Virus record (IMG/VR): IMGVR_UViG_2585427751_000001
Strand: one strand, 5' to 3'
Length of the DNA stretch: 17,049 nucleotides
DNA from: a virus
Lineage: Duplodnaviria; Heunggongvirae; Uroviricota; Caudoviricetes
In this document: in pieces, positions 15,001-17,049 of the stretch
Layout of the letters: every line of letters begins with the position of its first letter
Numbering within the stretch: the first letter of the stretch is position 1
Program-made: the position numbers

Positions 15001-17049
15001 CTGCGCGAGTGTGCGGGGATAATCAAAAACGATACACACCGGGGTTTACCGCGTTAACGGAGCGCGGCGTTGTCCCCTCATGGTCGCTGGTCCGGTGCGA
15101 TGGTGGAAGAAACCGGACGATGTGTTACCTCGCAAGCTCTGTTATGTCATGTGTCTGATTTGTGATTTAAGTCGGATAATTGTCGTTGCCATTAAGCAGA
15201 GGATTGATGACCGACAGGGTGGCATTGTTAGAATAAGACTTATTCTTATCTGTGCCGGGAATGAAAATGAAAAGAAACCTTCCGTTAATTATTTTGTTGT
15301 CTTCTCTGGTTATGGGCTGTACGCAACATAAAACAGATATGCCCCGACAGTTGGTTAAGGCATTACCACAATATCCGGCCTATGCAGCGGCAAATTATAT
15401 AAAGGGACGGGTTGATGTGAAGTTTGATATTGGTGCTGATGGTACTGTCACCCGAATTGAGTTTATCCGTTCAGAGCCGCACCATTTGTTTGATGAGCAG
15501 GTTGTAAAGGCGATGGCAAAATGGCGATTTGAGAAGGACAGGCCGTGTAAAGGCGTGAAGAAAACGTTTATCTTTAGTCCTTCTGCACCCTGATTATTTC
15601 ATCAGAAATTAATTATCACTCTGTTGTTATTCTGTACATCCCGGCAGGGTAAGTCTTGTTCCGTCGGATATGAAGATGAAATATTGTTGGAGGACAGTGG
15701 GTACCTGCTCCTGTAACCGAACGTTCATTTCTCGTTATTTTTCATGCTGGCCGGGCGCAGATGCGTTGCATCTGTTGCCAGCCTTCTCCTGCAGGCTTCA
15801 ATAACCCACGCTGAAAAGTTTCCTGAACCTTTCAGATCAAGAGCGATGTTAATTTGTTCAATCATCTGGTTTGGAAATCGGATGTTGCGGGTTGTTGTTC
15901 TGCGGGTTCTGTTCTTTGATGACATAATGTTTTCCCATATTCAGTGTTGCTGATTTGTATTATCTGAAGTTGCTTTTACGTTAATTTGACGCAGATCAAT
16001 TAATACGATACCTGCGTCATAATTGATTATTTCTCGTGGTTTGATGGCGTACACACATGTTGTGATAAACCTTATATAGATGATAATCATTATCATTTCG
16101 TGGGTCCTTTCCGGCGATCCGACCGGTTACGGGGCGGCGACCTCGCGGGTTTTCGCTATTTATGAAAATTTTCCGGTTTAAGGCGTTTCCGTTCTTCTTC
16201 GTCGTAACTTAATGTTTTTATTTAAAATACCCCCTGAAAAGAAAGGAAGCGACAGGTGCTGAAAACGAACTTTTGGGCCTCTGTCGTTTCCTTTCTCTGT
16301 TTTGGGCCGTGGAATGAACAATGAAAGTCAACAAAAAGCAGCTGGCTGACATTTTCGGTGCGAGTATCCGTACCATTCAGAACTGGCAGGAGCAGGGAAT
16401 GCCCGTTCTGCGAGGCGGTGGCAAGGGTAATGAGGTGCTTTATGACTCTGCCGCCGTTATAAAATGGTATGCCGAAAGGGATGCTGAAATTGAGAACGAA
16501 AAGCTGCGCCGGGAAGTTGAAGAACTGCGGCAGGCCAGCGAGACAGATCTCCAGCCAGGGACTATTGAGTACGAACGCCATCGACTTACGCGTGCGCAGG
16601 CCGACGCACAGGAACTGAAGAATGCCAGAGACTCAGCTGAAGTGGTGGAAACCGCATTCTGTACTTTCGTGCTGTCGCGGATCGCAGGTGAAATTGCCAG
16701 TATTCTCGACGGGATCCCCCTGTCGGTGCAGCGGCGTTTTCCGGAACTGGAAAACCGACATGTTGATTTCCTGAAACGGGATATCATCAAAGCCATGAAC
16801 AAAGCAGCCGCGCTGGATGAACTGATACCGGGGTTGCTGAGTGAATATATCGAACAGTCAGGTTAACAGGCTGCGGCATTTTGTCCGCGCCGGGCTTCGC
16901 TCACTGTTCAGGCCGGAGCCACAGACCGCCGTTGAATGGGCGGATGCTAATTACTATCTCCCGAAAGAATCCGCATACCAGGAAGGGCGCTGGGAAACAC
17001 TGCCCTTTCAGCGGGCCATCATGAATGCGATGGGCAGCGACTACATCCG

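Follow-up and report, generated by a model that had tools for sequence, protein, structure and literature searches.

Phage lipoproteins that act at the periplasmic face of outer-membrane transporters are an established means of exclusion, as exemplified by Llp of phage T5, which inactivates a single receptor, FhuA, by an allosteric mechanism. Cor, which is produced by the phages phi80, N15 and HK022, also acts on FhuA. Both Cor and Llp are small lipoproteins that reside in the inner leaflet of the outer membrane, where they reach TonB-dependent transporters from the periplasm. A different phage-borne lipoprotein of the outer membrane is lambda Bor/Iss, whose gene is a moron located in the slot between Rz and cos. 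Interference with TonB-dependent import has also been achieved artificially using soluble, overexpressed periplasmic fragments of TonB with at least 118 residues, which contain the C-terminal domain of TonB (residues ~150 to 239) and lack its energy-coupling part. Howard, Herrmann, Stratilo and Braun (2001, J Bacteriol 183:5885) reportedly found that such periplasmic fragments also inhibited infection by phi80 and killing by colicin M. Overexpression of the periplasmic TonB domain inhibits iron import via TonB-dependent transporters, and a TonB-box peptide lowers colicin killing and phi80 infection (PMC9841981). The gene described here encodes a natural protein that is borne by a lambdoid prophage, is predicted to be lipid-anchored, and carries a TonB C-terminal domain, which has diverged from that of the host TonB.

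A lipoprotein gene next to cos

The window, that is, the whole stretch of 17,049 nucleotides of caudoviral DNA that was analysed, contains an open reading frame on the plus strand (15267 to 15593, stop codon included), which encodes a lipoprotein precursor of 108 amino acids with a TonB C-terminal domain. Its nucleotide sequence is 100% identical to a RefSeq coding sequence of E. coli ARS-C301 annotated as 'TonB family protein', and matches to TonB_C models and the dN/dS ratio also support the coding assignment. The ATG at 15267 is taken as the start codon because an upstream ATG at 15261 reads ATA in the allele of phage 21; a Shine-Dalgarno-like GGGAA (15257 to 15261, plus strand), which reads AGGAA in the phage-21 allele, is found 5 nt before the start. 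The first 17 amino acids form a predicted signal peptide with two basic residues in the n-region, followed by the lipobox LVMG/C (together 15267 to 15320, plus strand) with the putatively acylated Cys18 encoded at 15318 to 15320. This lipobox, L-V-M-G-C18, matches the PROSITE pattern PS51257, as do 21 of the 22 family members described below, and Cys18 is invariant throughout the family. None of the 22 proteins has an aspartate at position +2. In the phage protein this residue is a threonine, which predicts sorting of the lipoprotein to the outer membrane by the Lol system, and from which we infer an outer-membrane location. Cys18 is separated from the TonB_C domain by a tether of about 7 residues, and the mature protein comprises about 91 residues.

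Downstream of the gene follow a convergent gene for a YlcI/YnfO protein (DUF3950; 15725 to 15925, minus strand) and, on the plus strand, cosQ (GGGTCCT, 16102 to 16108, positioned by the annotation of phage 21), cosN and the terminase gene Nu1 (16321 to 16866). The sequence GGGCGGCGACCT at 16133 to 16144 is the cohesive-end site cosN, as judged by the cos sequence of lambda. The preliminary description of this locus had placed a lipoprotein signal joined to a TonB_C domain next to cos, and both the position and the architecture were borne out, the latter by profile searches, alignment to solved structures and a structure model. No intrinsic terminator was detected on the plus strand downstream of the gene.

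Upstream, the gene is accompanied by an intergenic block (14938 to 15266, plus strand), which travels with it and starts 10 nt past the Rz stop codon in intact phages. Positions 14938 to 16176 of the window correspond to positions 15672 to 16910 of L001 at 98.9% identity, and Rz of L001 ends at 15662. The gene is a separate unit approximately 340 nt beyond Rz. In the prophage analysed here, the genes for holin, endolysin and Rz have been deleted, yet the lipoprotein gene has been kept. The conserved GC-rich block from 14941 to 15140 was considered as a structured RNA; its predicted folding was no more stable than expected (z-score -0.2) and it matched no Rfam family, so that we regard it as ordinary conserved phage backbone.

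The TonB C-terminal domain and a possible function as TonB mimic

Amino acids 26 to 104 of the precursor (15342 to 15578, plus strand) align without a gap with residues 153 to 231 of E. coli TonB, 31 of the 79 positions being identical (39%). In a profile search, as had been suggested in the preliminary description, the TonB_C domain was found well above the curated cut-offs of Pfam PF03544 (54.8 bits, cut-off 24.6, E=1.3e-14) and TIGR01352 (54.5 bits, cut-off 27.1, E=1.1e-14), and phmmer produced ungapped alignments over 79 to 81 residues with the TonB C-terminal domains in the PDB (E=4e-16; about 1e-16 for 1u07, 2gsk and 2grx). An AlphaFold2 model built on the 22-sequence alignment has a pLDDT of 85.5 overall and above 94 within the TonB_C domain; single-sequence AlphaFold gave a pLDDT of 51.5. 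The best Foldseek match of the model is the TonB chain of the BtuB:TonB complex (2gsk_B; rmsd 1.1 Å, TMt 0.91), the distance to TonB in the complex with FhuA is also 1.1 Å, and the top 11 PDB matches are all C-terminal domains of TonB or FusB. The predicted structure therefore contains the TonB_C fold, whose absence was to have spoken against the initial proposal.

Residues identical to those of E. coli TonB include Pro161, Gln162, the Tyr163-Pro164 motif, Phe180, Gly186, Phe202, Trp213 and Phe230; five of the six TonB aromatic residues compared are retained and the sixth, Tyr215, is replaced by phenylalanine. These positions matter in E. coli TonB. An alternating-hydrophobic strand (TFIFS) is found at the place of the third strand of TonB. 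Two substitutions, Gln160 to leucine and Arg166 to tyrosine, count against a function as TonB mimic, since Gln160 is the site of TonB-box suppressor mutations and Arg166 contacts FhuA. Outside the C-terminal domain, the lipoprotein differs from TonB, which has a full length of about 240 amino acids and resides in the inner membrane: it lacks the N-terminal transmembrane anchor and the proline-rich spacer, possesses a cleavable lipoprotein signal peptide instead, is predicted to be located in the outer membrane and ends four residues earlier. In line with this, the NCBIfam equivalog models for TonB match via their C-terminal 80 residues only, the best with 74.1 bits against that model's cut-off of 315; even the most permissive of the models requires 265 bits.

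The explanation that we favour, with a probability of roughly 0.45, is that the protein is an outer-membrane-tethered, motorless mimic of TonB that binds TonB boxes, lowers TonB-dependent import and protects lysogens. In such a mechanism, the lipid anchor and the tether of some 7 residues would hold the complete TonB C-terminal domain close to the sites at which outer-membrane transporters expose their TonB boxes. TonB-box strands would most likely be bound by beta-augmentation on the third strand of the domain; these strands would belong to the transporters themselves and possibly also to incoming group B colicins. The lipoprotein could not be energised by ExbB-ExbD, because it lacks the membrane anchor and the proline-rich spacer of TonB; it would compete with the scarce genuine TonB, thereby leading to less TonB-dependent import. 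The lysogen would then be resistant or tolerant to TonB-dependent phages such as T1 and phi80-like phages, to group B colicins and to microcins, at the cost of some siderophore and vitamin B12 uptake. Transcription would start from a promoter of its own just upstream and, because of the late-operon orientation of the gene, would also occur during lytic growth.

Several findings argue for this mechanism. The closest solved structure is that of TonB bound to the TonB box of BtuB, the tether is short, and the lack of an aspartate at +2 is seen throughout the family. Further points in its favour are the Fur boxes of the chromosomal homologues, purifying selection, the recurrent carriage of the gene as a moron, its retention in a lysis-deleted prophage and its high prevalence. 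Against it stand the promoter assignment, which on its own is no better than chance, the lack of a terminator downstream and the absence of the protein from PADLOC. Architecture, fold, selection, distribution and genomic slot are borne out by the data, whereas TonB-box binding and the exclusion phenotype are inferred. A TonB decoy is mechanistically sound in view of the retained residues and of the inhibition by engineered fragments, and the initial interpretation is to this extent partly supported. The preliminary description had further proposed that the protein acts in the manner of Cor. The part of this comparison that concerns a predicted outer-membrane lipoprotein holds, given the lipobox and the residue at +2, and the proposed logic, an attack on TonB-dependent transporters from within the periplasm, is similar; however, neither sequence nor fold is related to Cor or Llp. 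No Cor/Llp family was among the Pfam or PHROG matches, and a viral fold library gave no significant match. Moreover, cor adjoins tail genes, whereas the gene described here occupies the slot between the lysis genes and cos. Unlike Llp with its single receptor, the TonB_C lipoprotein would interfere at the TonB-box step that the receptors have in common, and thus potentially with many of them.

TonB could also be inhibited by another route, namely by pairing of the lipoprotein with the C-terminal domain of TonB or the periplasmic domain of ExbD and sequestration of TonB at the outer membrane. In the cell, the outcome would hardly differ from that of an occupation of receptor TonB boxes. TonB C-terminal fragments crystallise as strand-paired dimers, and the best matches of the lipoprotein include 1u07 and 1ihr. 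Mixed dimers were reportedly proposed as an alternative by Howard et al. in 2001, since transport by plug-less FhuA was also inhibited. However, it is disputed whether dimers of the TonB C-terminus matter physiologically, and a domain held so closely to the outer membrane is best positioned for the TonB boxes of receptors. We consider this route unlikely.

Chromosomal homologues and Fur boxes

The union of lipobox and TonB_C domain is not a fusion made by the phage, as the same architecture is found in a chromosomal gene family of other Enterobacterales, with members annotated as 'TonB family protein' in Klebsiella, Raoultella, Pantoea, Erwinia, Sodalis and Pseudescherichia; the Klebsiella and Raoultella homologues are chromosomal and syntenic. 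The phage protein shares 36 to 50% full-length identity with chromosomal members of the family as well as their length, the position of the lipobox (residues 16 to 19), a mature TonB_C domain of about 90 amino acids and the motifs YPxYA, SEPxHLFD and KWRFE, which are absent from TonB. In the 22-sequence alignment, C18, P34, P37, Y39, A40, S69, P71, L74, F75, W86, R87, F88 and E89 are invariant, and so are the PxYP motif and G59. The prophage gene thus belongs to this family as a mobile representative. A recent capture of the 3' end of a host tonB gene together with a signal peptide was rejected, because full-length homologues with the same lipobox in other genera score above TonB. In contrast to the phage copies, which adjoin lysis genes, the chromosomal homologues are not located near lysis genes, and no transporter or exbBD genes are linked to them.

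Among 18 species-representative chromosomal homologues, 11 possess a Fur box that matches the 7-1-7 motif at 12 to 14 of its 14 positions and is located at -29 to -31 from the start codon; three more carry a Fur box at -49. The near-perfect box is almost always the sole such site in the locus. These putative operators tie the family to the iron/TonB regulon, and the family is probably Fur-regulated. In the phage alleles of E. coli, the left half is all that remains of the box, and the scores are lower, with 9/14 in the window and 8/14 in phage 21.

The remaining half-site coincides with the putative promoter. The preliminary description had assigned the gene an AT-rich promoter of its own. The GC content, about 56% in the surroundings, indeed drops to 42% within the gene, and a candidate sigma-70 promoter (15207 to 15234, plus strand) consists of ATGACC, a 16-nt spacer and TAGAAT, with an extended -10 TG at 15226 to 15227 and a 9/12 match. 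The -10 island ATTGTnAGAATAAGAC is kept in the 72% allele despite diverged flanks, and a -10-like hexamer is conserved at the same upstream position in the whole family, where it aligns with the left half of the Fur box of the chromosomal homologues. However, promoter-like sites in the region, including the candidate -10 element TGT-TAGAAT at 15226 to 15234, are no more frequent than expected by chance, so that the promoter assignment is only in part supported. The -10 hexamer and the likely transcript start are overlapped by a perfect 8-1-8 palindrome, AGAATAAG-A-CTTATTCT (15230 to 15246, unstranded). When scored as a Fur box, it reaches 9/14 for the 7-1-7 motif and 13/19 for the 19-mer at 15232, which is within background. 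A conserved operator was ruled out, because the right arm is missing from the phage-21 allele; the palindrome, whose function is uncertain, might be a degenerate remnant or a re-creation of the Fur box of the family.

The Fur boxes bear on a further explanation, according to which the lipoprotein is an iron-acquisition helper. It would be a partner in the outer membrane, regulated by Fur, by which TonB-dependent transporters or TonB are organised or primed, with the prophage copy serving as a lysogenic-conversion fitness factor in iron-limited niches. The fixed distance of the box in most of the chromosomal homologues suggests that the family is co-regulated with the uptake machinery, and the chromosomal, syntenic location in Klebsiella and Raoultella would also fit. 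We nevertheless consider such a role improbable. Energy transduction is impossible for a TonB C-terminal domain that lacks an anchor, the loss of the right half of the Fur box in the phage alleles would be unexpected if an iron-responsive help were its purpose, and the chromosomal loci lack linked transporter and exbBD genes. In addition, the sole experimental data on free periplasmic TonB domains show inhibition (PMC9841981).

Conversely, a purely poisonous dominant-negative protein may be too simple a picture, because most chromosomal members carry a Fur box. For most of these relatives, induction upon iron starvation is predicted, precisely the condition under which inhibition would be most costly, which argues against a general TonB inhibitor. 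It is tempting to speculate, although we have clear doubts, that Fur-controlled outer-membrane TonB mimics of Enterobacterales trap TonB-box strands at the periplasmic mouth of the transporters, that their main targets are the TonB boxes of group B colicins, microcins or phage proteins that are threaded through the transporters, and that they confer tolerance to such agents when iron starvation forces the display of many receptors. Lambdoid phages would then have captured the gene and stripped most of the Fur control, and a largely constitutive version would have reached about one in four E. coli genomes, Stx1a phages among them. In these phages, the Fur-controlled stx1 promoter could additionally be de-repressed if less iron enters the cell.

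Distribution, selection and other proposed roles

The gene is an optional moron of low GC content, which recurs beside the lysis genes in phages of E. coli and Klebsiella. Of 5426 complete E. coli genomes, 415 contain one of its two alleles and 1225 the other, and it is carried by Stx1a phages and by the classical phage 21; Stx1a phages of pathogenic E. coli are enriched for it. A Klebsiella phage contains a copy in the same slot between the lysis and terminase genes, and a copy in a prophage-like region of Erwinia is located between an antiterminator gene and the holins. A scan of IMG/VR yielded near-identical E. coli copies only and thus no added diversity. Full-text literature searches retrieved no publication on the lipoprotein or its family, and the PADLOC models gave no match beyond one at chance level (E=0.022).

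If the lipoprotein does act as a TonB mimic at TonB boxes, it would be a natural dominant-negative mimic of TonB and an exclusion or tolerance factor that targets the energy-coupling step common to all TonB-dependent receptors, as opposed to one receptor in the case of Cor and Llp. Given the number of E. coli genomes that carry it and its presence in Stx1a phages and phage 21, it could affect host range in phage therapy and determine how well colicins, microcins and siderophore-antibiotic conjugates act. Iron physiology could also be influenced, and with it the iron-regulated expression of Stx1 in pathogenic strains. The proposed function would, moreover, offer a starting point for understanding what a conserved lipoprotein family of Klebsiella, Pantoea and Erwinia, which is probably regulated by Fur, does in the cell.

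The location of the gene also brings to mind an envelope or virulence lipoprotein similar to Bor/Iss, whose TonB_C fold would bind peptidoglycan or another envelope component and thereby alter the stability of the envelope or resistance to serum, while TonB traffic would not be specifically affected. A resemblance to LysM and binding to peptidoglycan have been reported for the C-terminal domain of TonB, the gene shares with bor the moron slot between the lysis genes and cos and a product predicted to be an outer-membrane lipoprotein, and the enrichment in Stx1a phages of pathogenic E. coli would be compatible with a role in virulence. However, the protein has no sequence similarity to Bor, no Bor family was found among its Pfam matches, the two genes are encoded on opposite strands, and phage 21 carries both. 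As the conserved features are those of a TonB-box-binding domain and the Fur boxes suggest a connection to iron rather than to serum, this role is very unlikely.

An accessory role in lysis, similar to that of an o-spanin, is suggested by the best PHROG match, phrog_1267 (E=5.7e-43), which is labelled 'Rz-like spanin', and would be in accordance with a predicted outer-membrane lipoprotein encoded directly downstream of the lysis cassette. However, the carrier phages have their own Rz/Rz1, the protein possesses a globular TonB_C domain and is no short, proline-rich Rz1, and its gene, separate from Rz, was retained here despite the loss of the lysis genes; the chromosomal homologues are also found away from lysis genes. 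We therefore give this role hardly any credence, and the spanin label of phrog_1267 is probably an error of annotation transfer.

Comparison of the window gene with the phage-21 allele revealed a dN/dS ratio of 0.13 at a dS of 1.37, where synonymous change is saturated; the gene is thus under strong purifying selection. The labels 'partial tonB-like' and 'TonB fragment' in older annotations and the frameshifted or truncated copies in some genomes might point to a non-functional tonB fragment picked up by the phage, but this least probable of the explanations is already contradicted by the sequence evidence, namely by the low dN/dS ratio at saturated synonymous change, the invariant lipobox in a family conserved across genera, and intact, near-identical copies in well over a thousand genomes.

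Structure of the TonB-like lipoprotein

The gene at window 15267-15593 (+) is an uninterrupted open reading frame of 108 codons, whose DNA is 100% identical to a RefSeq CDS annotated as 'TonB family protein' in the Stx1a prophage of E. coli ARS-C301. Other possible starts are a GTG at 15252, taken from a mechanical ORF list, and an ATG at 15261; the latter is ATA in the allele of phage 21, which keeps the ATG at 15267 and the GGA core of the Shine-Dalgarno sequence, and the coordinates proposed in the preliminary description are therefore right. The lipoprotein signal that had been read from the sequence was confirmed: the N-terminus (MKRNLPLIILLSSLVMG, then C) matches the PROSITE lipoprotein pattern, as do 21 of 22 homologues, in which the cysteine does not vary and position +2 holds S, T, A or V, but in no case Asp.

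The assignment of the remainder to a TonB C-terminal domain is upheld by profile searches, alignment and structure prediction. The protein matches Pfam TonB_C (E=1.3e-14, 54.8 bits, cut-off 24.6) and TIGR01352 (E=1.1e-14), and phmmer against PDB sequences retrieved TonB C-terminal domains only (best E=4e-16), with alignments of 79-81 residues without gaps that span E. coli TonB 153-233. Identity to E. coli TonB 153-231 amounts to 31 of 79 residues and includes Pro161, Gln162, Tyr163, Pro164, Phe180, Gly186, Phe202, Trp213 and Phe230, whereas Tyr215 is changed to Phe, Gln160 to Leu and Arg166 to Tyr; all these positions carry functional weight in TonB. With an alignment of 22 family sequences as input, AlphaFold gave a pLDDT of 85.5, exceeding 94 over the domain (51.5 from the single sequence). 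The top Foldseek matches of this model in the PDB were TonB C-terminal domains, and the TonB_C fold is therefore present in the predicted structure; the best match, 2gsk_B, the TonB chain of the BtuB:TonB complex, superimposes with an rmsd of 1.1 A across 79 columns and a target TM of 0.91. It is nearly certain that the protein is an outer-membrane-type lipoprotein with a TonB C-terminal domain. It is not a TonB, however: it lacks the membrane anchor and the proline-rich spacer of TonB, and it scores 74 bits where the NCBIfam TonB equivalog cut-offs are 265-448. Only about seven residues lie between the lipid-bearing cysteine and the first residue aligned with TonB Pro153.

Distribution and evolution of the family

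Among 5426 complete E. coli genomes, 415 have the window allele, chromosomal every time, and 1225 have the phage-21 allele. Deposited phages with the gene are Stx1a-converting phages, Lys8385Vzw, JLK-2012, phage 21, ev017, Perceval, PhiR47_2, PhiR57_1 and PhiR63_2. The two alleles share 72% amino-acid identity and are separated by 47 synonymous and 40 non-synonymous changes (dS 1.37, dN 0.18, dN/dS 0.13), and on this comparison the gene is real and under selection. The older labels 'partial tonB-like' and 'TonB fragment' are misleading, because they are contradicted by a dN/dS of 0.13 at a dS of 1.37. Residues 31-38 (15357-15380) hold five of the 20 mature-domain differences between the two E. 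coli alleles; these eight residues correspond to TonB 158-165, a segment which crosslinks to receptor TonB boxes. The clustering could mean that the alleles differ in target specificity, or simply that this loop is under little constraint.

Profile searches revealed a coherent family of 104-121-aa lipobox and TonB_C proteins in Klebsiella, Raoultella, Pantoea, Erwinia, Sodalis and Pseudescherichia, and in one assembly that carries the label Salmonella. Its members share the motifs YPxYA, SEPxHLFD and KWRFE, which are absent from TonB, and match the phage protein with about 95 bits versus about 62 bits for TonB. The Klebsiella and Raoultella genes are chromosomal and syntenic and adjoin lacI, with no phage genes near them, and the comparison indicates that the combination of lipobox and TonB_C domain is not an invention of the phage. 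Rather, the phage protein belongs, as a mobile member, to an uncharacterised family of TonB-mimic lipoproteins that is probably regulated by Fur; literature searches found no publication on this lipoprotein. A gene fragment with 70% identity on a 418-nt contig of an actinobacterial (Modestobacter excelsi) assembly most likely stems from contaminating E. coli phage DNA. The PHROGs v4 group that holds this protein, phrog_1267, is filed under lysis as 'Rz-like spanin', although it is made up of TonB_C lipoproteins; the label is probably a misannotation that will spread further.

Predicted Fur boxes and a candidate promoter

Upstream regions of 18 species-representative family members were scanned for the Fur 7-1-7 motif TGATAATnATTATCA. 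In 11 of them, a match of 12-14/14 lies at -29 to -31 from the start codon, and three further members have one of 11-12/14 at -49; in nearly every case, no other site of such quality occurs within the 6-kb locus. Near-perfect boxes precede the chromosomal homologues of Klebsiella, Raoultella, Pantoea, Erwinia and Sodalis, some 30 nt before the start codon (homologue loci L003 at 7975-7989, L005, L091, L093 and L096-L112), and the Klebsiella site is perfect (TGATAATTATTATCA). From this conservation, the family very probably belongs to the Fur (iron-starvation) regulon as an as yet unrecognised member. The tonB gene itself is a known member of this regulon.

In the E. coli phage alleles, the Fur box is reduced to its left half (8-9/14), which suggests that the phage copies have been freed from iron control. 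The left half is also a -10-like hexamer: in phage 21 it reads TCAGAAT and lies at -27, whereas the window has TTAGAAT, displaced by a 14-nt insertion. A candidate promoter lies at 15207-15234 (+; ATGACC, 16 nt, TAGAAT, extended -10 TG). The idea that the gene has its own promoter is thus supported by the family-wide conservation of the hexamer's position, although the promoter scan by itself performed no better than chance. A perfect 8-1-8 palindrome at 15230-15246 overlaps the -10-like hexamer; in the allele comparison, it was not conserved in the phage-21 allele.

A separate perfect Fur 7-1-7 palindrome (TGATAATCATTATCA; 0.01 per window expected by chance) is located at 16081-16095, 38 nt left of cosN and immediately left of cosQ. 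Part of it coincides with the -10 of a promoter-like site (16060-16087), and it is also found in relatives with lambda-type cos.

Possible mechanism and alternatives

The mature protein would be anchored at the periplasmic face of the outer membrane, where its TonB_C domain may capture TonB-box strands by beta-augmentation through strand residues 94-103. As the lipoprotein cannot be energised, it would compete with limiting real TonB; TonB-dependent import would then drop, and the cell would resist TonB-dependent phages as well as group B colicins and microcins. We give this competitive TonB-box binding a probability of 0.45, based on the kept binding elements, the nearest solved structure, which is TonB bound to a TonB box (2gsk_B), the predicted location and experiments with periplasmic fragments. 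Phi80 and colicin M were reportedly inhibited in the work of Howard et al. in 2001. TonB residues 160-163 are reported to crosslink to receptor TonB boxes (Cadieux and Kadner in 1999), so the N-terminal end of the domain would face the receptor, and the tether geometry seems feasible. An overexpressed periplasmic TonB domain lowered iron import via TonB-dependent transporters, and a TonB-box pentapeptide reduced colicin killing and phi80 infection (PMC9841981). Exclusion by phage lipoproteins at the periplasmic face of a TonB-dependent transporter is established, for example for T5 Llp on FhuA; Llp and Cor have neither sequence nor fold in common with the TonB-like lipoprotein. The observation of a lipoprotein with a TonB_C domain is confirmed, and its reading as an exclusion factor in the manner of Cor is supported in part.

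Fur control would mean that the chromosomal relatives are produced at the very time when the need for TonB-dependent uptake is greatest. A more selective role, such as the trapping of the TonB boxes that incoming colicins carry, or even a role as a helper, therefore fits better than a blunt block. Heterodimerisation with TonB would produce the same phenotype as competitive TonB-box binding by another route. Progressively less likely are a Bor-like envelope role (in lambda, bor occupies the equivalent slot between Rz and cos, and classical phage 21 has both bor and the TonB-like gene), the spanin role of the PHROG label and a dead fragment. The protein can be classed with the TonB_C family and the phage exclusion lipoproteins, and it is of interest because it is prevalent and simple to test and because it may prove to be an exclusion factor acting at the common TonB step.

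Genomic setting and other features

Intact relatives carry the gene about 340 nt past Rz, followed by a convergent YlcI/YnfO gene, cos and the small terminase gene. A copy with 40% identity occupies the same lysis-to-terminase slot in a Klebsiella prophage, and an Erwinia copy is flanked by an antiterminator and holins. In one close relative of the window's prophage, the slot exists but the gene is absent, so by this comparison the TonB-like gene is an optional moron; GC content drops from about 56% to 42% across it.

Homology of the window to intact phages starts 10 nt past the Rz stop. At a deletion junction (about 14884-14938), this sequence is joined to the first ~141 codons of a SASA/NanS-type esterase gene (617 aa in an intact relative). 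The deletion thus removes the holin, endolysin and spanin genes, and the window's prophage should be unable to lyse, yet the TonB-like gene and its entire upstream region are retained. The junction was found in no complete E. coli genome.

Elsewhere in the window, the paired genes for a HipA-like kinase (weak HipA_2/HipA_C matches) and a DUF3037 protein (2159-3807, -) directly adjoin an S24/HTH (cI-like) repressor gene (3857-4582), a pairing and position typical of defence or toxin modules on prophages. A 349-aa DNA methyltransferase gene (12624-13673) precedes three phage tRNA genes (13723-13972, +) with a CAT anticodon, Arg-TCG and Arg-TCT; the CAT tRNA is Met according to ARAGORN but tRNA-Ile in RefSeq relatives. 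Just downstream of this trio, 14049-14239 (+) matches the STnc100 sRNA family with 139 bits against a gathering score of 47.
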